Below the pieces are notes generated by a model. The model saw only the letters and a list, made by a program, of their open reading frames with translations, made no database searches and was not told where the DNA came from. DNA of 64,000 nt from a bacterium (GTDB taxonomy: Bacteria > BMS3Abin14): contig JARGFV010000001.1 in assembly GCA_029210545.1 (NCBI GenBank), positions 3,500-67,499 on the forward strand, written 5' to 3'. The first letter of the stretch is position 1. Each line of letters opens with the position of its first letter. Made by a program: the position numbers and the translations under genes. Of the stretch, positions 4,441-59,722 are shown one piece after another.

Positions 4441-4803
4441 GACCTTACTCTGCGCCTTTCGGTTCGGAGGCCGGGTTCGGGTGCGACGGCCTTTAGCGAT
4501 TATCGTTCCCGGTTCCTTGTCTGTAAAGACCCAAACCCGGGAACCTGTCGGAGACTCCCTGAAAGGTTCCCGGGTGTCGTATGCCGGAAAGTAATGAAAA
4601 ATGGCCTATGGCCATCAACAATTCCGGTTTGCGGATCTGGAGTGGCAACAACCAGGTGCGCATTAACCGGAAGACCCACGAATACTTTCTCCCTCCTCCC
4701 TCCTCCCTTTTACCTGCTTTTTCACACCAGGGACACTGGACTTGTAAAGGGACCGATGGTACTTTTGTTAGACCGTATACCTTGCTGATTACCGGAGGGT
4801 CCC

Positions 4804-7000: not shown

Positions 7001-7510
7001 GTGAGTGATCTGAAGAAGCTTTTTCGCAAGGAGCACCCCTTCATCACAGAACCGGGCAGCTGGATCCTGGCTGGCCACAGCATGTCGGGAGATCCGCTGG
7101 ATCGCGTGCCCGTACAGGGGCGTATCCAGATCACCCACGAGGAGGGGAAGATCGTCAATCTTGGCGAGATGGGTTTCGTGTCCCGGTCGAACCCCGTGAA
7201 GTTCCAGACGTCCTATGAGCTGACCCCTGCTGAGGACGAGCTGGCCCTGGATTTTTTCCAGGCCAACGACGCGGTCGGGGACCTGAAGGGCCGTTTGGTG
7301 GCATTCGACGACAGGCTTGTCAGCAGTTACACTTCCGGGGATGGAAGCCTGACCGGATTCGAGGTTTTTTTCAGGACCGGTGACAATCGGTACGCGGTCA
7401 CCGGGACCCTGTTGAGTGGAGGTAAGATCATCAGCCTGTGGAAACTGGACATGGTCCGGCCCGCGGCTGAGGAGGCTCGGAAGGATAGCGAGCAGACCGG
7501 CGGGGAATGA
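7001..7510 (+). CDS. Hypothetical protein (169 aa)
   Basis: Same strand as its neighbours in a co-directional run. Chosen over the overlapping 265-aa minus-strand ORF. Confidence 0.35.
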   Translation: MSDLKKLFRKEHPFITEPGSWILAGHSMSGDPLDRVPVQGRIQITHEEGKIVNLGEMGFVSRSNPVKFQTSYELTPAEDELALDFFQANDAVGDLKGRLVAFDDRLVSSYTSGDGSLTGFEVFFRTGDNRYAVTGTLLSGGKIISLWKLDMVRPAAEEARKDSEQTGGE

Positions 7511-7571
7511 GATGGAGGCCCTGGAGGTTCTCTCCCTGCCGGCGGGAAGAATAAACACGGAGGATCTGAGC

Positions 7572-8945
7572 ATGATCGGTAAACGGATAGCAGTCTGGGT
7601 GCTGGCAGGAGCGGTCCTGGTCACCCTGGGGATGCCGGGGATAGTCAAAGCCGACCCCGTGGCGGAGGCCCAGCAGCTCCAGGAGGGCGGCGATATCACC
7701 GGCGCCTACGAACTCCTCAAAAAGGCCAGCGCCGACCTGAGTGACCAACTTAAAAAGAACAAGGCTGAGTTGAAAACACAGGTTTCAGCCCTGTCGGGTG
7801 TCAAGAGCCAGGAAAAGATGGACGAGATCAGGAAAAAGAACGATGTTCTTCTGGCCGAGCGCAAAGAGCTCAAAGCTCAGCAGGACAAGGTGGACGGGGC
7901 CATGAGCCAGATGACCTCCATCCTCGATTACGCGCCCTACCGGGAAAAGGATACCGCGGAAGCTTACGCCCAGTTCATCGAGAAGTTTCCGGAGAGTCCC
8001 AACGTTGAAGAGGCTGCAACAAGGATGTATGAACTCCAGTTCACACCCTACGAGGAGGCAGCCACCACGGAAGGTTACGAGGAGTTCATCTCAAGGTATC
8101 CTGATAACCCCAACGTTCCCAAGGCCCAGGAGCTTCTGGGGGCGGCCGTCTTCAACCAGTTCAAGGACCAGGGTACGGCCGAGGCCATGCAGGCGTTCAT
8201 CAACGAATACCCCGGCAGTCCCCACGTGGCGGAGGCAGAGGTCCTGATGGTCCAGCTGCAGTATTCTCCCTACAAGGAGCTGGATACCGCTGAAGGGTAC
8301 GCCGAGTTCATTGCGGCCTATCCGGAAAACCCCAGCGTTGCCGAGGCTCAGGCGAGGATGGAGGAACTCCAGTTCCTTCCCTACAAGGAGCAGGACAGCA
8401 TCGACGGTTACACTGAATTCCTGGCTCTTTATCCGGACAACCCCGCCGCGGAGGAGGCTGCAACGAAGCTTGGCGACCTGCAGTACGCTCCCTACAAGGA
8501 GCAGAACACGGCTTCAGGTTACGCGGAATTCCTGGCCCGGTATCCGGAAAGCTCCTTTTCAGGGGAAGCGGCCGAGAGGATGAACTATCTCCAGTTCGTG
8601 GTCTACCAGGAGATGAACACTATCGACGGGTACGAAGAGTTCATCACCAGCTATCCTGAGAACAGCCACGTCGAGGAAGCCAGTTACCTTATCGAGGATC
8701 TCGAGTACGCTCCCTACCAGGAGGCCGGCACCATCGAGTCTCTCGAGGAGTTCATCGAGATGTTCCCCACGAACCGCCACGTCCAGGATGCCCGGACCGC
8801 CATAGAAGAAAAAGAAGCAGCCTCCCTTTCAGCTGAAGGTGCGGAGGACCAGCCCGCCGGGGAAGGTGAAGGGTCAGCTCCCGCCCAAGAGGCTCCGGCC
8901 GGGGGGGGAGAACCCCCGGCTGAAGAGGCGCCACCTGAAAGTTGA
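7572..8945 (+). CDS. Secreted protein with an N-terminal coiled coil, about nine tandem ~38-aa repeats (Y-x-E-x-x-T-x-x-G-Y-x-E-F-I-x-x-Y-P-x-x-P-x-V-x-E-A...LQ[FY]xP), and an acidic Pro/Ala/Glu tail
   Basis: ATG at 7572 preceded by GGAGGA. Signal peptide MIGKRIAVWVLAGAVLVTLGMPGIVKA. Repeat units read directly in the translation. Confidence 0.6.
   Translation: MIGKRIAVWVLAGAVLVTLGMPGIVKADPVAEAQQLQEGGDITGAYELLKKASADLSDQLKKNKAELKTQVSALSGVKSQEKMDEIRKKNDVLLAERKELKAQQDKVDGAMSQMTSILDYAPYREKDTAEAYAQFIEKFPESPNVEEAATRMYELQFTPYEEAATTEGYEEFISRYPDNPNVPKAQELLGAAVFNQFKDQGTAEAMQAFINEYPGSPHVAEAEVLMVQLQYSPYKELDTAEGYAEFIAAYPENPSVAEAQARMEELQFLPYKEQDSIDGYTEFLALYPDNPAAEEAATKLGDLQYAPYKEQNTASGYAEFLARYPESSFSGEAAERMNYLQFVVYQEMNTIDGYEEFITSYPENSHVEEASYLIEDLEYAPYQEAGTIESLEEFIEMFPTNRHVQDARTAIEEKEAASLSAEGAEDQPAGEGEGSAPAQEAPAGGGEPPAEEAPPES
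7928..8810 (+). repeat. Intragenic tandem repeat (~114-120 bp units) encoding the ~38-aa protein repeats
   Basis: Recurrent YxPYxExxT..GYxEF..YP..P.V.EA...LQ motif through the ORF. Confidence 0.6.
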
Positions 8946-12079: not shown

Positions 12080-12256
12080 AACTTTGATGACTTCGCAAAA
12101 AGTCATCAACGCCCCCCGCGCGGGGCGCCCAAATCAATGACTCACTCCGTAAGTCATTGATTTGTAAGGAAAGGGAAAACGACGCTTTTCCCTTTCCCCA
12201 GGACATTAATGAGCCAGGAAAAGTCCCGGATTGGACTTTTTGCGACTCTATCAACC
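12080..12256 (-). repeat. Family-1 MITE-like element, copy A (five-hairpin composite; ends in TIR GTCGCAAAAAGTCC)
   Basis: Shares the ordered hairpin modules with copies at 15654, 19683, 53773 and 57226. Confidence 0.7.
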
Positions 12257-13925
12257 TTGATGGACCCGCAATTAGTCACGCTGCGGTTTTTTCTGGTAGT
12301 TGGTTACCAATGTACGATTGACGTATCATTTTTCTGAAATCGTCCATAGTTGACGACAACAGCTCTTTGACAGCATCAATAAGTCCCAAAACAAGCTGAG
12401 AATGGGGTAAATAAGGCCCGTTGTCTTGGATTTTCCTGTTTCTGAACGTAGCGGCGCGCAGGATGTTGACACCTGTGGCCTTCAGGAAAACCGAGCAGGT
12501 CTCCTTGTCGAAGGCGGCGCTGTGGCGCTCCTTCTTGTGTTTGGTTCTCAACGGCGCATGGCCTTGAGGACAGGAGGTGACCTTCCCTCTCTTGGCCAGG
12601 GTGAAATCGGTGAGGCTTACACTCTTGTCCTTGCCGGGCTCCGGCCCCTTGACGGGCGAGACGACCTCGACGCTCATCTCGCTCGCTGCCTTCTCGACGT
12701 TCTCGTCGCCCCCATAGAGGGTGTCGGCCAGAACCTCCTCGGGACCCAGGTCCCGGTTCTTCGTATCCTCGATGAAGGGGATCAGGGCCTTGGCGTCACT
12801 CTTGTTGGCGGGTTCGACCGATATGTGGGTTATCAGGGAAGGCTGGCTCTTCTCCTCGCTGTTCTCGTAGGTCTCGGCGACCTGTACCTGGTAGCCCTTG
12901 CCCTTGTGCCCACTGTAGCCGGCGTCAGGGTCGGAAGGGCTTTGCAGGGAGTCGGAGGGAACGTCACGGTTGGGTTTGACCGAGGCCTTCCTCTTACCGG
13001 TCTCCCCGTCATCCTCGACAATGCACTGTTCCTTGAGAAGCCTCACCAGAAGCTGGTAGCTGGTCATGGAGGATATGCCGGGAAGTTTGCGGAACCGATC
13101 CACCAGGTAAAACAGGTCATTGGCCAGAGTCTCAAGGGTCCTGGATGACTCGGACGGCTTGACCATGGAAAAAGCCGACTCGCCCTTTTTGGACATGTAA
13201 CGGTCGGTCAGTTCCTTGTCCAGAACATCAAACAGACCCTTGTGGTGACGCTTCAGGTTGCGCAGGAACTTCTTGATAGTGGCGACAAACAGGCCGACGC
13301 GGCCCAGATGACGCATGTTCGACTGTATGTGTACCGAGTCGATGCGCTGCTTGCTGGTGTCGACATTGAACACCACGGCAAGCTTGGCGGTCACGGACTC
13401 GAACAGGGGAAGGTAGAGGTTGTGTTCGGTAAGGATCTTCCGTATGCTCCACAGTGTTTTGGGACTGACATAGGCCTCCTCATCCGACTCACCGGTGATA
13501 TTCAAGGCGTAATGCCACTTTTTGTTGAAAGTAAACTGGTCAACCGCATCGTCATCGGTCAGATCGTGCATCTGCTGGAGGATCATCAGGCCCAGCATGG
13601 CGTATAGCTCCTTGGTGGGACGACCTTGAAGCTCGCTGTAGTGTAGGAGGAGCTTTTGAACCGGCAGTTCAGGAAGGACCTCCTCCCTGAACAGATGAGC
13701 CCAGGAGCTCTCCAGAAGCTTGCGGCGCCTGGGGCCTAAATGCTCGAAAGGATCGAACATGTCGAGGGTTTTGTAGTCTTTGGTATGGAACATGGCAACT
13801 CCTCGCAACTCATTGATTTCGTTGGCATATTCCACCATAAACCACGCCCCGTTAAAAGGAAAAACAACCTTTTATCCATGGTTTTCAAATAGTTGGAAGA
13901 ATGATACTTTTTGCGATGCCGTCAA
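12257..13925 (-). mobile_element. Insertion sequence, boundaries approximate, carrying one transposase gene
   Basis: Single 520-aa transposase ORF flanked by noncoding DNA. Ends were not resolved, and no clean inverted repeats were identified by eye. Confidence 0.4.
12276..13838 (-). CDS. IS transposase (IS5/IS1182-like; DDE family with an N-terminal DUF772-like region)
   Basis: Length and layout match this family. The C-terminal region has a Cys-rich motif (SCPQGH...C). Confidence 0.6.
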   Translation of the reverse strand: MVEYANEINELRGVAMFHTKDYKTLDMFDPFEHLGPRRRKLLESSWAHLFREEVLPELPVQKLLLHYSELQGRPTKELYAMLGLMILQQMHDLTDDDAVDQFTFNKKWHYALNITGESDEEAYVSPKTLWSIRKILTEHNLYLPLFESVTAKLAVVFNVDTSKQRIDSVHIQSNMRHLGRVGLFVATIKKFLRNLKRHHKGLFDVLDKELTDRYMSKKGESAFSMVKPSESSRTLETLANDLFYLVDRFRKLPGISSMTSYQLLVRLLKEQCIVEDDGETGKRKASVKPNRDVPSDSLQSPSDPDAGYSGHKGKGYQVQVAETYENSEEKSQPSLITHISVEPANKSDAKALIPFIEDTKNRDLGPEEVLADTLYGGDENVEKAASEMSVEVVSPVKGPEPGKDKSVSLTDFTLAKRGKVTSCPQGHAPLRTKHKKERHSAAFDKETCSVFLKATGVNILRAATFRNRKIQDNGPYLPHSQLVLGLIDAVKELLSSTMDDFRKMIRQSYIGNQLPEKTAA

Positions 13926-13928
13926 TAT

Positions 13929-16016: not shown

Positions 16017-16055
16017 GACCTTCTCCTTTCTCCTTTCTCCTTTCTCCTTTCTGCC
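16017..16055. repeat. CT-rich tandem repeat (ctcctttct x4)
   Basis: Read directly. Similar CT-rich tracts occur at 14800-14880 and 32560-32640. Confidence 0.5.
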
Positions 16056-16196
16056 TTCTCTCACACCCTGGCCAACCCGACAGTCCTTTCAAACCGTAGG
16101 CTGGCTAAATAAGGTTATCGTGATTAACTGTTATCAAGTTCTTATTGCGGGGCCGCTCCATTTAGCACGGCCCCCCCCGGGCGAGAGGCTGTCATC

Positions 16197-19476: not shown

Positions 19477-19538
19477 GGGATTTTAGTTCACGGTTCGCGG
19501 TTCACAGCCAAGGCTTTCGATCTCATCCGACCCGTCAA

Positions 19539-19967
19539 CTAGGAATCTGTCGGAGAACCTCCCTGTTTTTAACAGGGAGGGCACAGACTCCTAGCTGGAG
19601 TTTGTCGGAACATATTTTTTTGAGTCTTTTTTTATATAATACCTTGTGTTAACAATGACTTGCAATCTTCACCCGCAACTTTGACAGGGTCGCAAAAAGT
19701 CCAATCCGGGACTTTTCGCTCCACGGAAAGGGAAAAGCGTCATTTTCCCTTTCCTCACGGATCGCTGACATGATTTCCGGTCATCGATCCGGGCGCCCTT
19801 CCCAAGCGCGGCTAGTCATTGATTTGGGCGCCCCGCGCGGGGCGCGTTGATGACTTTTTGCGGGTCCATCAACTTTATCACCTGTTGATCTGAAGGCAAA
19901 AAGCATTAGAAAAGTCGTTCCGACAAACTTTTACGCAGCGTGTCAGGGTTTTCCGACACGCTGCTAG
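19539..19967 (+). repeat. Family-2 MITE-like element, copy a, carrying a nested family-1 element
   Basis: Left TIR/hairpin CTAGGAATCTGTCGGAGAACC...GACTCCTAG. Right end CAGCGTGTCAGGGTTTTCCGACACGCTGCTAG. Internal sequence matches the copy at 59563. Confidence 0.65.
19683..19880 (+). repeat. Family-1 MITE-like element, copy C (nested in family-2 copy a)
   Basis: Begins GACAGGGTCGCAAAAAGTCC and ends GACTTTTTGCGGGTCCATCAAC. Contains all five hairpin modules. Confidence 0.75.
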
Positions 19968-25611: not shown

Positions 25612-26022
25612 TCAAGATCACTCCCCGTACAGGCCGGGGGGAAGAAAAATCGTAAAAAATTACGGTGGAAACCGGGATTATGGGTCAGCGGTGGATGCGA
25701 CAGGATCACCCGGCCCTTGAATCTGCGAATACTAGCAGAACAGTCCTGCCATTTCAATGTCCACAACGCCCCAAGAGCCCATTTTTTATCTTTTTCCGCG
25801 AAACTCACACCGCAATCGCGCCAGGAGTTTCATGGATAATAAATCCTTCGTCCTGATTTCCGGAATGATGGAAGAGATTTGCTTCCTCGCCGGTTGTCGT
25901 TTCTCCCTTTCTCTCCCTCACCCGCTCTCCCACTCGGGTCTTTTCTCCGTGTCCCCCTTTCCCGCCCGCGCCCAGCTTTTTCCTCCCTCCTCCCTCCTGC
26001 CTCCTCCCTGCCCTTCCCCCAC

Positions 26023-28164: not shown

Positions 28165-29160
28165 TTACTGCCTACTGATTACTTTTCTCAGCACCCACAT
28201 CCCCTTCTCATCTGTGTAGCTTTGCACTCTTCCATCCACAACCTCGACCTGGAGCTGCTTTCCGATGCCGGGTGAGGCCTCGAGAAACCTTTCCTCCAGA
28301 GCCTTCACACCTTTATCTTCCAGTCCGACCCTCCGTGCCCACTCCTCGAAGGGATGGGTACGGCTGAACAGATCAAAAGAGACGACCTCCAGACCAGCCT
28401 GGGCGATCAACCCTGCCCACCCATTGACCGTATCCGACCTGACGTGACTCGGATCACGCTGTCGCTCCACCTCGTTGAGGAACCTGTCACATTCCGGGTC
28501 ATCTGGAACGATACTGTCGATGATCACGGCACAGCCATCCCTGGCCAGGACACGCCTGACCTCGCGCAGGAAATTTTTCAGGGAGGGGAAATGATGTGGC
28601 GCGACGCGGCAGGTCAGAAGCTGGATACAACCGTTACCTAGGAGCCTGTCGGAGAACCCCATGCAGGCTCCTAGATATAGTTTTTCGGAAGTAGCATTTA
28701 GACCGAAAAAAACAAATATATGGCACATTTGGTAATTCACCGGAGTTATTTACCGGTTTAATGCTCTTGTTTTCAAGAAAAGACCCAAAAAAGGGCTTTC
28801 CGAAAAACCTACAGCAGCGTGTCAAGAGGTTTTCCGACACGCTGCCAGGGGCAGGTTCTCGGCCGACGACTGGACCAGCATCAGGTCCGTGATCCCGATC
28901 CCGGCAAGGTGTGTCCTCGTCACCTGGAGCATCTCCATGGTCAGGTCCAGCCCAATGCAGCGGCCCGACAGGGGAGCCGCCGCTCTTAACGCATGTCCGG
29001 CTCCCGTCGCGACATCCACGGTCAATGCCGGGCAATGCTCATACGCCACCTTCCGGATAAGGGCAAGGTCCGGTCCCGTTCCATGATCGGAACTCGAAAG
29101 ATATCTGTCGGCACTTGCCGAGAAGGTATTCCGCGGATCACTGCTCCGGGCGGAGGTCAC
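28165..29160 (-). pseudogene. Class I SAM-dependent methyltransferase (UbiE/Methyltransf_11-like) split by a family-2 MITE
   Basis: N-terminal half (motif I VDVATGAGHA ... SSAENLPL) runs from a GTG start at 29160 to 28846. GTG and the rlmD stop share the GTGA overlap. C-terminal half (GNGCIQLLTCRVAPHHF ... ) resumes at 28638. Removing 28639-28845 (207 nt) rejoins both halves in frame. Confidence 0.7.
28638..28848 (+). repeat. Family-2 MITE-like element, copy b, inserted in a methyltransferase gene
   Basis: Left hairpin CTAGGAGCCTGTCGGAGAACCCCATGCAGGCTCCTAG. AT-rich core. Right hairpin CAGCAGCGTGTCAAGAGGTTTTCCGACACGCTGCC. Confidence 0.75.
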
Positions 29161-32438: not shown

Positions 32439-32605
32439 GCCTTTGTCCCTTTTCCTCAATCTTTCCTTCCTCCCTGGAAGGAGATTGAGGGAATATGGAA
32501 TGTGGAAGGTAGAAGGTAGAAGGTGGAAGAAGAGAAAAAGAACGACACCCATGCTTTTCTTCCCTATTCCCTATTCCTCATTCCCTGTTCCGATTTCTCC
32601 CTTCC

Positions 32606-35404
32606 CTATTCCCTATTCCCCCTTCCCCATTCTTTTTTTAACCCCACGGTCTTGTACATGAAATTCCTGAACCTGGTCATCGCCTCCCCCTCCTCGCGGC
32701 TGTCTGCAGGCAGGGCGCCGAGATGGCGGGCGGCCCCTCTCACCCCTCCCCCCTCGGCAAGGGCCAGCCTGTAAATTTCCAGGACAGTCCCGCGAGTCAG
32801 GTCCCGGGACATGAATGGGATGTGGACGAGCTCCCAGAAATCGCCCGCTCCCTTGCGGATCTGCCCGTAGATCGCCGCGGCGTCTCCCTGGACATTCTTG
32901 CCGTCAAGGGTGGAGAGGGAAAGAAACCTCTGGATCTCGTCCACCCCCACGATCCCGTCATCGCTTTCGAAGAGAGCTCCCTGCAGGATGGTCACAAGCT
33001 GGCGGATATTTCCGGGGAAGTCGAGATGGGAGATAAACTCCTCGGCCTCCGGCGTGATGACGGGCGGCGCGCCCCCGGCTGAATAACTCGCATGGAGACG
33101 ACCCAGGAAGTGTTTGGCCAGATCGGGGATGTCCTCCCGCCTGTCCCTGAGGGAGGGAACCCGGAGGGTCATCTCGCTGAGCCGATGGTAAAGATCCTCC
33201 CGGAAGGCACCCCTTGCGATCTCCCTTGCCAGGTCCCGGTTGGTGGCGGCGACAAAAACGACCCTGCTGAGCCGGACCTTGGTTCCTCCCAGCCGTGAAA
33301 ACTCTCCCGAATCCAGGAAGCGCAGCAGCTGGACCTGGGTCTTGAGATCAGCGTCGCCGATCTCATCGAGGAAGACCACCCCTCCGTCCGCCTCCTCGAG
33401 GATTCCCGTCCGGTCGACATGGGCACCTGTATAGGCCCCCTTCTGGTGCCCGAACAGTTCAGTAAAGGTGAGATCTCCACTGAAAGCGGCGATATTGGTT
33501 TTGCGCAGGGGCAGTTCCAAAGCACCCCCGCCCAACTTTCTGAACTTTTCGTTGACCAGGCTGTACAGGTTGTTGAACACGAACTCCTTGCCGGCCCCCG
33601 TCTCCCCCGTTATGAGAAGGGTCGGCAGCCCCAGCTCCAGTTCCTTCTCTTTACCGCGGCTCCAGTTAAGGAGCCTGTTGGTCAAAGGTTCGGCCAGCCT
33701 GCTGATCCGCTTGACCAGGAGCTGCGAGTGGGCGCTCTTGCCGATGATATTCCCGAGCAGGTAGGAACTGACACCGGGGTCCTTGTAGGAGACCTCCTTG
33801 CGCAGCCTCGCCACCTTTCCCTCGAGTTCACTGATCTTCAGATGGTCGGCGATGCGGTTGGCGATGAGGCGGGATATGAGAAGGAGGATGCGCTGGTGTT
33901 CGACAGTGAAATAGGCCCGACGGTGGCTGTCCAGGTTGACCACTCCGAGGACCGATTCACCTAACCTGATGGGGACCGCGAGTTCCGAAGCCACGTCAGC
34001 GGCAAGGTTCCGGTAGAACCCTCCCCTGGCCGTTTCGGCATCCGTATCCGGACAAAGGTACGGTTTTCCCGTGAAAGCCACATACCCCGTCAGAGAGCGT
34101 TCCTCGGCAGGGAGTTCCTCACCACCCACCCTCAGATCGGGGATCTTCGCCTTTCTCCAGTCACGGGATTTGCCCCCCACCAGCCGCCCTTCGGCGTCAT
34201 CGACGACAAGCCACTTCTCCTGGTTCCGTTCGGTCACCAAAGCGATGGAGCCCGATTCGGCGCCTACCAACTCCACAGCGCGGGAGGCGACCTTGCCCAG
34301 GAAGACCGGCATGGGAGCGTCCTCGGCGAGAAGCTCCTCGATCTCCGAAAGGACACGTATTTCGAGGTGTCCCACCGCGAAGTCAGTGATACCTGCCGCC
34401 AGGGAACTCGAATGGCTCATGAGGAGTTTGAGTTCCGGCTCGGTGAACCTGTGGGGGCGCTTCGTAAAATAGTTGATGACGCAAGTCACCTCGCCCCCCT
34501 CCCCGGAGACGGGGATCATGAGGAGGGTGCGCAGGGAAAGCCTCTTGAACACCTCCCACCGCTCGAACTCCTCTGCCAGGATATCCTCGAAAAAAAGGAC
34601 CTGGGGGGCACCCGGGCGCCGGAGGACGCGGTCGCCATCGGGCATGACCAGGCGGGAAAGGAGGCTTTTGCCCTCGAGGAGGCTGATTCTCTCGAGGGTC
34701 TCGTAGATCTGGAGATCCGACGGGTCCCGGGAGGCGGCAGCCAGGATCTCCATGTACCCCCCTCTCTCCCGCTTGAGGACTTCGGGCACCGGAGACTGCG
34801 CCGATATCAGGACCGATGTCATATCGATGGCAAGGTCGATCTCGAAGGCACCTTTGAGAAGTATCCTGGCGGCATCCCTTTTCCTGGACCGGTCCAGCTG
34901 CCGGCTGAGCATGATCCGCCTGTTGAACCGGTGGGCCCTGGCGAGAATGGGCATGATCCTATTGAGGAGCTGCCGCAGTTCCTGCTTCATGTCCGACAAG
35001 AGGGCATGACTCTCGGCGGCGTCCACGGTCAGGGCACCGATGCAGTTGCCTGCATCCACGAGGGGGAAAACCGTCGCCACAGACAGGCCGCGCCGTTCGT
35101 ACCACTCCCGGTGGAGTTCGTCACTGCCCTCCCCGAGGGGGGCATCCGTCACGATCTTCGATTCCAGGAACGACCGGACGAGGGGGTTCTCCCGTCTCTG
35201 GATAGGGATACGGGCTCCCTTCCTCTCCAGTTCTCCCTCCGGCGTGTAAAGGCACAGGAGAGCGCCCTCCCGCATATCCTCCAGGTAGACACGGATCGAG
35301 GGTACCCCGGTTCTCAGGGTCACCTCCTTGACCAGGTAGTGAAGGATGTCGAGAAGGTTCTCCTTGTCGAAGGAAAGGATCTGGTCAACGAAGGACATCA
35401 GCAT
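32606..35404 (-). CDS. Sigma-54-dependent transcriptional activator with multiple N-terminal GAF domains
   Basis: AAA+ sigma54-interaction domain with Walker A GETGAGKE and a GAYTGA variant of the GAFTGA loop. Start at MLMSF (35404) after GGGGGAG. Confidence 0.8.
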   Translation of the reverse strand: MLMSFVDQILSFDKENLLDILHYLVKEVTLRTGVPSIRVYLEDMREGALLCLYTPEGELERKGARIPIQRRENPLVRSFLESKIVTDAPLGEGSDELHREWYERRGLSVATVFPLVDAGNCIGALTVDAAESHALLSDMKQELRQLLNRIMPILARAHRFNRRIMLSRQLDRSRKRDAARILLKGAFEIDLAIDMTSVLISAQSPVPEVLKRERGGYMEILAAASRDPSDLQIYETLERISLLEGKSLLSRLVMPDGDRVLRRPGAPQVLFFEDILAEEFERWEVFKRLSLRTLLMIPVSGEGGEVTCVINYFTKRPHRFTEPELKLLMSHSSSLAAGITDFAVGHLEIRVLSEIEELLAEDAPMPVFLGKVASRAVELVGAESGSIALVTERNQEKWLVVDDAEGRLVGGKSRDWRKAKIPDLRVGGEELPAEERSLTGYVAFTGKPYLCPDTDAETARGGFYRNLAADVASELAVPIRLGESVLGVVNLDSHRRAYFTVEHQRILLLISRLIANRIADHLKISELEGKVARLRKEVSYKDPGVSSYLLGNIIGKSAHSQLLVKRISRLAEPLTNRLLNWSRGKEKELELGLPTLLITGETGAGKEFVFNNLYSLVNEKFRKLGGGALELPLRKTNIAAFSGDLTFTELFGHQKGAYTGAHVDRTGILEEADGGVVFLDEIGDADLKTQVQLLRFLDSGEFSRLGGTKVRLSRVVFVAATNRDLAREIARGAFREDLYHRLSEMTLRVPSLRDRREDIPDLAKHFLGRLHASYSAGGAPPVITPEAEEFISHLDFPGNIRQLVTILQGALFESDDGIVGVDEIQRFLSLSTLDGKNVQGDAAAIYGQIRKGAGDFWELVHIPFMSRDLTRGTVLEIYRLALAEGGGVRGAARHLGALPADSREEGEAMTRFRNFMYKTVGLKKEWGRGNRE

Positions 35405-49467: not shown

Positions 49468-49501
49468 CAGCAGCGTGTCGGGGCACTTCGACACGCTGCG
49501 G
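49468..49501. repeat. Solo hairpin matching the family-2 MITE right end, between the regulator and speH
   Basis: CAGCAGCGTGTCGGGGCACTTCGACACGCTGCGG. Confidence 0.5.
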
Positions 49502-53725: not shown

Positions 53726-53772
53726 AACCTCTCCTCAAAAAACGGAGCGGTTTTAAGTAAAATTCCAAATTT

Positions 53773-53932
53773 GATAGGGTCGCGAAAAGTCCAATCCGGG
53801 ACTTTTCGCTCCACGGAAAGGGGAAAGCGTGGTTTTCCCTTTCCTTATAAATCAATGACTTACAGTGTGAGTCATTGATTTGGGCGCCCCGCGCGGGGCG
53901 CGTTGATGGACTTTTTGCGAGTCCATCAAATT
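53773..53932 (+). repeat. Family-1 MITE-like element, copy D
   Basis: GATAGGGTCGCGAAAAGTCC ... GGACTTTTTGCGAGTCCATCAAA. All five hairpins present. Confidence 0.75.
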
Positions 53933-54591
53933 TCGGTTCATCACAATAATGCGTACCTGTGTGTTGTCACTCCAGGACTCTTAAAGGCGATCACCACGGA
54001 GCACACAAAGAAAGCCTGAACCTGGGGGAAGACTCAGGCGCGCACCGCAAAACCCCTGAACCCTGGCGCGAAGCGCCCTTCGATCACGCCGTTGGCGTGA
54101 TAAAGCCGGGCGGAGCGGCCTTTAGCTGACCGCGCTCCCCAGAATCTCGATTGAATTGATTTTCGAGATTCTGGGGATAAAAAAACCCCATTGGCGTGGT
54201 AAGTTACGTTTCAAGCTTGAAACGACCCATGACACAATGACAGCCCATGCCGGTCTGGCCCGGGCGAGTTCGCGGAAGGGAGCAGGCTTCCCTTTCTGGT
54301 GGACCGTCACCTGCCGTTGCCCGGCAGCGGGGCCGGTTATCGTCCGTCGGAGTTCGTGATGCCATACCCGAAATTCGCCGAAAGCGCCCTTTCGGTCGGG
54401 GCTGGACGGTCAACGAGTGACGTAGGGCGGCAAGTTCAACAGCAACACGGCTCCATGCAAAAAATAGCCCCCTCAATGCCCCGACCGGAGGCCAGCCAAA
54501 ACCAATCGCGGATTTCGGGTGGTTAGTTGGCTTTTTCCTGCAATAGCGTTAATAACTGTTTTTTAGCTGTTAGCTGCCTGTTGGAGATCCA

Positions 54592-55830
54592 TTGAATCCG
54601 GAAGAGCCCATCCATAAAAAACCGGGCACCAGCAAGGCTGCCTTAGCCACTACTCTGGCTACAGGAGCGGTCGCCGTGGCTGTGGCGGGAGCCATGGTCA
54701 TGGGTATTTTGGAGCGGCTCACACCTACACCACCGGTTCAGGTGGAGGTGCTCCGGTCAGCCCTTCCCGACGGGGCGCGTTTTCAGGACCGGTCCGATCC
54801 CCTGCCCCACTTTCCAGGTATCGATGGAAATGGGGAGAAAATCGGTGCGGTCATCCTCACCGATGAGCTGGCCCCCTCCGTACAGGGTTATCTCGGCCAG
54901 GTGGGAACCGCCGTGGGCCTCACCCCGGACGGACGGATCGCCGCCGTTCGGCCTTTCCGCCACAAGGAGACCCCATACTACATGGAGATGGTGATAACCT
55001 CGGGTCTCCTGGATGAGATTGCCGGGATCGACATGGCAAAACCGTTCCCCGACCTAGACGCCGTGTCGGGAGCCACGATAACTTCCCGTGCCCTCATCGA
55101 GGATGTCAGGCTCTCCGCCGCCAGGGCCGCACAGGCTCTCTACTCCATCCAGGTCCCCGAACCGGAGGCAAGACAGCGTGGACCGGTACCGTTCTGGAAA
55201 GAGAGTCTCCTCGCAGTGACCCTGCTCCTCTCTTTCACAGCCGGCTTTTTGGGAAACGGGTGGTTCAAAAGATACGGGATGGGGCTGCTCACCCTGGCTG
55301 TAGTGGGCCTGATCCTCAACACACCCCTCACCCTGTCGGCTATTTCGCGCATCCTGCAGACGAACCTGCCCGGTACCGGCAACTGGGCCTTGCTGCTCCT
55401 TGTCCTCTACATCCTCATCTCGTCACCTTTTCAGGGAAGGGCCTACTGCCGCCACGTCTGTCCCTTCGGGACGCTCCAGGTGCTGCTCCATCGCCTTTCA
55501 CCCATGCAGGTCAGGGTGCCTTCCGGTGTCAACGTCTGGCTGCCGGCTATTAAACGGGCCTTTGCCGCCCTGCTGATCTGTATCGGTATCTGGGGCGGGA
55601 TGGGAGGGTTTACGGAAATCGAGCCCTTTTTCAGCCTTTTTTCCTTCAACCTGACACCCCTCCTGTGGATGATGGTGATATTCGTACTTGCGGTTTCGAT
55701 TTTCTGGAGACGGTTCTGGTGCAACACCCTGTGTCCGACGGGCACCCTGCTGGCCCTTTATTGCAGGGCCACCCGGCACGGGAAGGGGAAAAGGGATGAA
55801 ACGATCCAGGAGTCTGCTGAAGAGATATAA
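54592..55830 (+). CDS. FMN-binding domain fused to a membrane polyferredoxin (NosR/NapH-like)
   Basis: FMN_bind motif DAVSGATITSRA. Two ferredoxin-type Cys clusters, CRHVCPFG and CNTLCPTG, sit within TM segments. Putative TTG start after GGAG. Confidence 0.6.
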   Translation: MNPEEPIHKKPGTSKAALATTLATGAVAVAVAGAMVMGILERLTPTPPVQVEVLRSALPDGARFQDRSDPLPHFPGIDGNGEKIGAVILTDELAPSVQGYLGQVGTAVGLTPDGRIAAVRPFRHKETPYYMEMVITSGLLDEIAGIDMAKPFPDLDAVSGATITSRALIEDVRLSAARAAQALYSIQVPEPEARQRGPVPFWKESLLAVTLLLSFTAGFLGNGWFKRYGMGLLTLAVVGLILNTPLTLSAISRILQTNLPGTGNWALLLLVLYILISSPFQGRAYCRHVCPFGTLQVLLHRLSPMQVRVPSGVNVWLPAIKRAFAALLICIGIWGGMGGFTEIEPFFSLFSFNLTPLLWMMVIFVLAVSIFWRRFWCNTLCPTGTLLALYCRATRHGKGKRDETIQESAEEI

Positions 55831-55938
55831 TAGATTCTTGAATATCGTTTGTCGGAAAACCATGAACGACTGGACTCACGCCAGCATAATTTTAAATGAG
55901 TTTCAAATTGTAATAAAAAAACTCGAGAGAAACTTAAG

Positions 55939-56229
55939 ATGAAAAAACGCATTTCCCGACAAATTTTCAAGCAGCGTGCCGAGGTTTCCAGGCACGCTGC
56001 TCGGGAACTGTCCGGAGGGTGGGCGGTGTTACTGCTGATCATCACAGTACTCATGGCCCTGGCCGTCGGCTGGCACCGCGAGATCGCCTCCAGATACCCG
56101 ATATCGGACCTGCCCTTCGTGGATCTTCAGCGTCTTTCAAATCAGATCGAATCGGGCAACGTCGGTAAAACAGGAGCGCTGTATTACAGGAAAAGTGATG
56201 CTGGGGCTGATACCACCGAGATCCGTTGA
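55939..56229 (+). CDS. Small hypothetical single-TM protein (doubtful)
   Basis: ORF with one hydrophobic helix. A MITE-type hairpin lies at its 5' end and the 3' end overlaps the radical SAM gene. Confidence 0.2.
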   Translation: MKKRISRQIFKQRAEVSRHAARELSGGWAVLLLIITVLMALAVGWHREIASRYPISDLPFVDLQRLSNQIESGNVGKTGALYYRKSDAGADTTEIR

Positions 56230-57225: not shown

Positions 57226-57380
57226 GATGGACTCGCAAAAAGTCCATCAACGCACCCCGCGCGGGGTGCCCAAATCAATGACCTGTACCGTAAGTCATTG
57301 ATTTGTAAGGAAAGGGAAAACGACGCTTTTCCCTTTCCGTTGAGCAAAAAGTCCCGGATCGGACTTTTTGCGACCCTGTC
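57226..57380 (-). repeat. Family-1 MITE-like element, copy E, between amrS and the amrB-amrA fusion
   Basis: Reverse-orientation copy with all modules. Ends GGACTTTTTGCGACCCTGTC. Confidence 0.75.
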
Positions 57381-57454
57381 AAGGAAGAGCTTGCAAAAAA
57401 GTCCTTCCATTGAATCATTCCCTTTGTTCTTAAGTAACATGAGGGCAACCTAAA

Positions 57455-59400: not shown

Positions 59401-59562
59401 TACTTTCTGATATTCGGGAACGGCACTGTACCGGTTTGCCGCTCAGGTTTTTCCGGGATGATCCAAAATCCTGATTTCACCGGAGAGAACGCGAAAGAGG
59501 TCGTACTGTGGTAAGTTAGCCTTTGACCTCCTTTGTAAGCTTTGCCATTCACCTAGGAGTCT

Positions 59563-59722
59563 GTCGGAGAACCTCATACAGACTCCTAGCTGGAGTTTAT
59601 CGGAAAATGGCATGTTTAAAAAAACCAAGCAATTCGGATAGTTACAACCGACTTTAATAAAAAGAATCATCTTCCGACAAACATATCTAGCAGCGTATCG
59701 GGGTTTTCCGACACGCTGCTAG
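59563..59722 (+). repeat. Family-2 MITE-like element, copy c
   Basis: CTAGGAGTCTGTCGGAGAACCTCATACAGACTCCTAG ... CAGCGTATCGGGGTTTTCCGACACGCTGCTAG. Confidence 0.75.

Follow-up and report, generated by a model that had tools for sequence, protein, structure and literature searches.

Miniature elements with foldback ends and CTAG flanks in a bacterial genome, very probably derived from an IS1182-family insertion sequence

Introduction

The 429-bp element at positions 19539 to 19967 (plus strand) of the window, by which we mean the whole 64,000-nt stretch of DNA that was analysed, raises the question of what kind of repeat it is, how it came to its present place and which enzyme could move it. In the sequence-only reading, it was taken to be one of three full copies of a MITE-like family (family-2), lengthened by a nested element of a second family (family-1). 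The MITE reading is borne out, as the elements are short, non-coding and multicopy, carry inverted repeats and CTAG flanks, share their ends with transposase-bearing insertion sequences and include one proven insertion. We are highly confident that family-2 is a MITE, a non-autonomous element derived by deletion from an IS1182-family insertion sequence.

Family-2 copies in the window

To count the copies, we searched the window with the left-end motif CTAGGAGYCTGTCGGAGAACC and the right-end motif GGTTTTCCGACACGCTGCTAG, allowing up to three mismatches. Both motifs matched exactly the three claimed elements and nothing else in the window, and 100 shuffles of the window gave no matches to them. 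A search of the window with an nhmmer profile, built from metagenomic relatives and window copy 2, brought the family to five copies and one solo end in 64 kb. Copy 1 (19539-19967) consists of a left foldback, a core with the nested family-1 element and a right foldback. Copy 2 (28638-28848, plus strand, 211 bp) covers the whole profile (E = 1.5e-60) and is the window copy nearest to the family consensus; its right flank is CCAG, not CTAG. The third copy, also confirmed by the end-motif search, starts at 59553 and not at 59563 as first given; it ends at 59722 (plus strand, 170 bp, E = 1.8e-21), is intergenic and has a core shorter than the consensus. Because their cores have diverged, copies 1 and 3 are probably both old. 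Once the nested element is excluded, family-2 copies measure about 170-230 bp and are crossed by short spurious ORFs only.

Two solo hairpins had also been proposed, at 49468-49501 and 55970-56002. The former is a true solo right-end-type foldback (49470-49499, plus strand; GCAGCGTGTCGG ... CGACACGCTGC; repeat family D3), both 10-nt arms of which equal the right-end stem exactly; it has no CTAG flanks, its score against the family profile is not significant (E = 0.33), and it lies directly upstream of a minus-strand start codon. The latter, however, belongs to a degenerate full-length copy (55806-56003, plus strand; nhmmer E = 5e-8, profile positions 1-216), of which it forms the right end. 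The remaining copy, at 4537-4595 (plus strand; E = 1.5e-4; repeat family D9), is partial and diverged, with a left foldback and an inner repeat; its stem, CCGGGAACCT / AGGTTCCCGG, has four base pairs altered on both sides.

The degenerate copy at 55806-56003 overlaps the ends of two reading frames. It supplies the last seven codons and the stop (QESAEEI, then stop) of a 412-aa ORF at 54592-55830, as well as the ATG and roughly 21 opening codons of a 96-aa ORF at 55939-56229 with a predicted membrane helix, and element sequence may have been exapted here as gene ends. Repeats of other kinds also occur in the window. Tandem repeats with a 111-bp period at 7935-8723 lie inside the ORF at 7416-8945, which points to a product with repeated 37-residue units, and pyrimidine-rich tracts at 32559-32632, 4686-4717, 16027-16058 and 25980-26011 read CTTCCCTATTCCCTATTCC with a 21-bp period, or TTTCTCCCTCCTCCCTCC.

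Copy 2 interrupts a methyltransferase gene

Judged by the restored gene and an empty orthologous site, copy 2 is a proven case of one precise insertion. It splits a minus-strand class I SAM-dependent methyltransferase gene into an N-terminal part (28849-29160) and a C-terminal part (28165-28641, a range that includes the retained CTAG), which join in frame after removal of the element. In silico removal of 28642-28848, with one CTAG left, gives a continuous 262-aa ORF (...VQSSAENLPLGNGCIQLLTCRVAPHHF...) with a Methyltransf_11 domain at residues 48-144 and the junction at residues 105/106, a region that seven homologues (55-73% identity, the closest intact ones included) span gap-free. A public protein record (P0127) of 165 aa, named class I SAM-dependent methyltransferase, is identical to the C-terminal fragment.

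The gene is intact at three other loci (L126, L127 and L128). In L126, which is syntenic (RlmD-like gene, methyltransferase, PpiD-like gene, MreB), the orthologous site is empty, as the comparison of loci suggested for the original reading has now established: L126 reads CCC CTG GGT, whereas the window reads CCC CTGG-element-CTAG GT. Four bases therefore stand at the empty site, and the element lies between two such tetranucleotides, one of them differing by a transition; the empty site is CTGG instead of CTAG, so that one point change must be assumed. Target-site analysis places copy 2 between CTAG and CCAG. At other loci, CTAG stands on both sides in 50 of 66 paired elements, a count in which the left-flank asymmetry is partly built in by a search pattern that fixed the left TAG. 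The duplication comprises either the four bases of CTAG or the central TA only; the two are indistinguishable because the target is palindromic and fits both.

The terminal repeats are those of IS1182-family insertion sequences

We then considered which transposase family uses such ends. A scan of one genome per species with TAGSARYSTGTCGGARAACC placed the end motif at no fewer than 120 genome loci in many phyla, many of the matches lying at contig ends; the matches listed include Chloroflexota, WOR-3, Desulfobacterota, Planctomycetota, Latescibacterota, Zixibacteria, Spirochaetia and others. The family-2 terminal repeat, (C)TAG-GAGYCTGTCGGAGAACC, proved to terminate complete insertion sequences of the IS1182 family in other phyla. 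Two loci, L007 and L034, hold complete autonomous elements of about 1.6 kb that are bounded by the motif, with CTAG at either side (CTAG-GAGTCTGTCGGAAAAC ... CTAG in L007). The 458-aa protein of L007 scores 384.6 bits with the model NF033551 "IS1182 family transposase" (cut-off 270) and also has the Pfam domains DUF772 and DDE_Tnp_1, and the protein of L105 scores 376 bits, above the same cut-off; these two were the ones scored, and the L034 ORF is visibly similar to that of L007. IS5 models remained below their cut-offs on the end-bounded transposases. An annotated IS1182-family element on a Bradyrhizobium plasmid likewise starts CTAG-GAGCTTGTCTGG. A full-length autonomous partner with the exact family-2 ends was found at none of 229 loci, and the window holds no IS1182 partner with family-2 ends, its sole IS1182-like gene carrying family-1 ends.

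The 18-20-nt end motif is nearly unchanged across many bacterial phyla and one MAG labelled Thermoplasmata (e.g., L007, L034, L105 and L120), a uniformity that, for a single IS1182 subgroup, means either conservation of unusual strength or broad horizontal spread. It is also found on other MITE families, in Anaerolineae H21_255, Ca. Leptovillus and Latescibacterota, which resemble family-2 in their 18-20-nt repeat, CTAG flanks and tandem arrays but differ in having unrelated cores and neither terminal foldbacks nor inner GTTTTTCGGAA repeats. Arrays of MITEs arranged head to tail and sharing a single CTAG lie at L023 1916-2240 and L080 454-680. At L048 6200-6420, two foldback elements stand separately between CTAG sites, one of about 38 bp that consists of two terminal repeats only and one of about 85 bp.

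A series of internal deletions links family-2 to a transposase-bearing relative

Family-2 was also sought in metagenomes. A scan with the right end GGTTTTCCGACACGCTGC returned 109 loci, roughly half of which, judged by their flanks, are family-2 right ends; the rest look like coding-sequence coincidences. Relaxed paired-end patterns (strict ones gave too few pairs) yielded 26 distinct complete elements, which measure 68-238 bp and mostly about 210 bp. Twenty aligned elements (185-245 bp, the window copies included) have one layout, in which a left foldback is followed by GTTTTTCGGAA, a conserved AT-rich core, TTTCCGAAAAAC and a right foldback.

A local protein search of all fetched loci uncovered a longer relative. 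The 719-bp element at L135 9008-9726 (also in L139 and L215) has complete family-2 ends around remnants of an IS1182 transposase, namely, its start (MKKRAKFKSYD...), a middle piece with 65% identity to the L007 protein over 83 aa and its C-terminus (...CLTHNLLKLFRYGKWKPRVA, then stop). The 238-bp element of L196 aligns with that of L135 in three blocks in the same order and retains only the sequence that forms the start and the end of the L135 transposase reading frame. From these remnants inside family-2 ends, it follows that family-2 is an internal-deletion derivative of an IS1182-family element, with a documented series of 719, 238 and about 210 bp, and the complete family-2 ends of L135 imply that the foldbacks were already present in the ends of the parent element. 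As far as these sequences can be read, then, the parent family is IS1182 and the end hairpins are native to the parent.

A different origin for the same architecture deserves some weight, although we regard it as distinctly the less probable one: family-2 could be a historical composite, in which two tiny foldback elements flank an inner MITE with ends of its own (CTAG-ATATRGTTTKTCGGAAG), built up through successive insertions into the CTAG sites that each copy creates and now moving as one unit. Its possible building blocks do exist, since free-standing foldbacks of about 38 bp lie between CTAG sites (L048, L075 and L087), elements of 68 bp consist of two foldbacks only (L180 and L232), tandem arrays share a common CTAG (L023 and L080), and the inner repeats are themselves inverted and border CTAG. 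The 719-bp, transposase-bearing relative, however, already has both foldbacks and both inner repeats, and the architecture is therefore either parental or older than the deletion. Internal deletion, which does occur, as L196 demonstrates, would explain the short forms just as well. Such a composite would in any case concern the origin only, as the element would stay an IS1182-type MITE.

The CTAG flanks could also recall a second transposase group, IS630/Tc1-mariner, which inserts at CTAG and duplicates the central TA, and a few flanks do fit a TA-only duplication (e.g., ATAG ... CTAA in L113). Yet the left-flank asymmetry is in part forced by the search pattern that fixed TAG, the transposase-like ORFs adjoining the ends (L007, L034 and L105) are all IS1182-type, two of them by score, and the longer family-2 relative holds remnants of an IS1182 transposase, so that we consider an IS630/Tc1-mariner-type MITE very improbable.

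Both ends of family-2 fold back on themselves

Within the IS1182-derived element, the ends have a structure of their own. The left end reads GGAGYCTGTCGGAGAACC and the right end GGTTTTCCGACACGCTGC; the latter had been described as the reverse complement of the former, and the two do form an inverted repeat, but an imperfect one, in which 18 of 21 bases agree. The left-end pattern was also matched by the right end in two copies, 1 and 3, and these show identical differences between left and right (GGAGTC vs GCAGCG). The hairpin reported at the left end is real as well, with a stem of 12 bp (CTAGGAGTCTGT / ACAGACTCCTAG) rather than 11, and the right end is likewise a hairpin, of 10 bp (GCAGCGTGTC / GACACGCTGC) plus five further pairs. 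In copy 1, sequence and profile alignment place the left foldback at 19539-19594 (plus strand; stem CTAGGAATCTGT / ACAGACTCCTAG, with one A.C mismatch), its loop holding the GTCGGAGAACC repeat core and an additional small hairpin, and the right foldback lies at 19935-19967 (plus strand; GCAGCGTGTC ... GACACGCTGC, then TAG; repeat family D3). A third domain is closed by an inner inverted repeat, GTTTKTCGGAA ... TTCCGAMAAAC, the arms of which lie in copy 1 at 19600-19610 (GTTTGTCGGAA) and 19918-19928 (TTCCGACAAAC), both on the plus strand. The block TCCGACAAAC, thought to be common to the cores of all copies, is the right arm of this repeat; it is present in copies 1 and 3, but copy 2 has TCCGAAAAAC. 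In the conserved core (e.g., window 28729-28760 and L216), GGTAATTCAC further occurs twice in direct orientation, the copies being about 13 bp apart, and there is an AT-rich hairpin, GCTCTTGTTTT ... AAAAAAGAGC.

Compared with their shuffled counterparts, copies 3 and 2 fold much more strongly as single-stranded DNA (z = -8.7 and z = -7.7, respectively). Among 24 left foldbacks, pairing is kept through two-sided changes at 6 of 10 stem positions. These changes include the outer CTAG, which should be target DNA, and position 8 is divided between T-A (11 copies) and C-G (11 copies). Part of the covariation may reflect subfamilies. Very-short-patch repair is expected to change CTAG to CCAG or CTGG, and such biased repair could be the source of these changes and could thereby imitate compensation at the base of the hairpin. 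The flanking CTAG is indeed often CCAG or CTGG in a CTAGG context (window 28845-28848, L149, L179, L192, L199 and L232). The remaining changes in the left stem suggest a constraint on structure. The right foldback with its T-rich tail, read inward, fits a simple terminator pattern, and it is possible that it insulates the element from outside transcription; a sigma-70 promoter scan inside the element returned none.

It is tempting to speculate that the foldbacks are working parts and not historical debris, serving either as inward terminators or as substrates that this IS1182 subgroup would recognize as hairpins or cruciforms, an idea that we put forward with considerable reserve. A host-maintained, non-mobile structured repeat (REP/BIME-like, a terminator cassette or an IS200/IS605-type element with hairpin ends) could likewise account for the strong hairpins at both ends, the compensatory left-stem changes and the inward terminator pattern, but it is hardly credible given that one copy interrupts a coding gene whose orthologous site is empty, that the element has true terminal inverted repeats in common with DDE-transposase elements and that the repeat has no Rfam match, the only Rfam match in the window being a tRNA. 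The idea of an IS200/IS605 element, raised by the hairpin ends and TTAC-like left flanks, was dropped once the same ends were found on DDE elements; for the IS200/IS605 and REP classes alike, the presence of terminal inverted repeats and CTAG flanks and an associated enzyme that is DDE rather than Y1/HUH led to rejection.

A family-1 element is nested in copy 1

Copy 1 owes its length to a 201-bp family-1 element at 19672-19872 (plus strand; ends TTGACAGGGTCGCAAAAAGTCC ... GACTTTTTGCGGGTCCATCAA), which can be aligned from end to end with the family-1 copies at 53766-53934, 12085-12256 and 57238-57382, in agreement with the earlier identification of the extra DNA. Without the insert, copy 1 measures 228 bp, inside the family-2 range. 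The flanks of the insert, expected to rejoin into a contiguous core, do so only loosely: the left piece (19539-19612, profile positions 1-55, E = 1.3e-8) and the right piece (about 19873-19967, profile positions about 105-218, E = 3e-10) follow each other in order on the profile, but the 60 bp to the left of the insert are too diverged to be aligned to it. With the nested insert and the ordered flanks, the proposal of two successive transposition events holds up, and two successive insertions are the simplest reading of copy 1.

The surroundings of copy 1 are also of interest. Contig JAVVEN010000116.1 (GCA_032250785.1), 99.75% identical to the window, ends inside the nested element. In relatives (L121-L124, 79% protein identity), synteny ends exactly at the stop codon of a histidine-kinase gene, at 19480 and adjoining copy 1, past which a 255-aa gene and an APP1_cat gene take the place of the window sequence; a rearrangement may have occurred at copy 1 or close to it. 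An exact-protein look-up of the histidine kinase ending at 19480 gave no match.

The IS1182-like transposase gene of the window lies at 12276-13838 (minus strand, 520 aa), within 12085-13927. Its product scores 116 bits with NF033551, less than the cut-off (270), in a match that ends at position 396 of the 488 in the model. The gene is bounded by family-1-type ends (TTGATGACTTCGCAAAAAGT at 12085 and ACTTTTTGCGATGCCGTCAA at 13906-13925), and a third family-1 end-like copy lies at 12235-12256. Because this IS1182-like gene has family-1 ends, family-1 and family-2 both seem to derive from IS1182-type elements.

Proposed mode of transposition and comparison with known systems

Taken together, these results can be accommodated in a simple scheme, the chemistry of which, like the trans mobilization and any role of the hairpins, we infer from the sequences. 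The terminal repeat, G(G/C)AGYSTGTCGGARAACC, would be the binding and cleavage site of a DDE transposase of the IS1182 family, which would be supplied in trans to mobilize family-2. The outermost 10-12 bases of each terminal repeat recur as a short inverted copy, onto which the repeat folds back to give a hairpin, and the element would insert at the palindrome CTAG, with CTAG on both flanks as the result. Among the outcomes of such insertions are the split methyltransferase gene and the use of copy 1 as a landing site for family-1.

Commonly cited parents of MITEs are IS630, IS5 or IS4, whereas the parent of family-2 is, in our reading, IS1182. Family-2 resembles classical bacterial MITEs in being short, non-coding and multicopy, with an AT-rich core, inverted repeats, a strong fold and insertions both between and within genes; in the classical form, however, the whole element makes one long stem, while in family-2 each end is an independent hairpin. 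With the IS1182 family (ISPse1, ISPsy36, ISKpn6 and IS1272), it shares terminal repeats that are identical to those of elements passing NF033551 and a 4-base palindrome as target, but it lacks a transposase gene and measures only about 170-230 bp. Foldback hairpin ends, present in family-2, are absent from the L007 and L105 elements and from the transposase-bearing ends of L005 and L017. Within the IS1182 family, 4-bp direct repeats have been reported for ISPse1 (PMC3281130) and a GGCC target for ISPsy36 (PMC8027508), and IS1272/TnSha1 insert into hairpins without duplication, part of the target being deleted (PMC5678879, PMC4923244). Unlike the latter, family-2 keeps its target and is flanked by CTAG. 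If the foldbacks were indeed hairpin substrates for this subgroup, that would link its CTAG-targeting members to the hairpin targeting of IS1272.

Significance

For this uncultured lineage, these elements explain breaks in genome assemblies, one public contig (L125) ending inside the nested element, and the interrupted methyltransferase gene can now be flagged as a pseudogene, of which the public record has only the 165-aa fragment under an ordinary methyltransferase name. The family-2 profile is ready for use in masking or annotating these repeats. The general understanding of such elements is unaltered, and the case is one of well-documented but ordinary biology: a MITE family, very probably IS1182-derived, is now documented, with an end motif that has stayed almost unchanged across many phyla.
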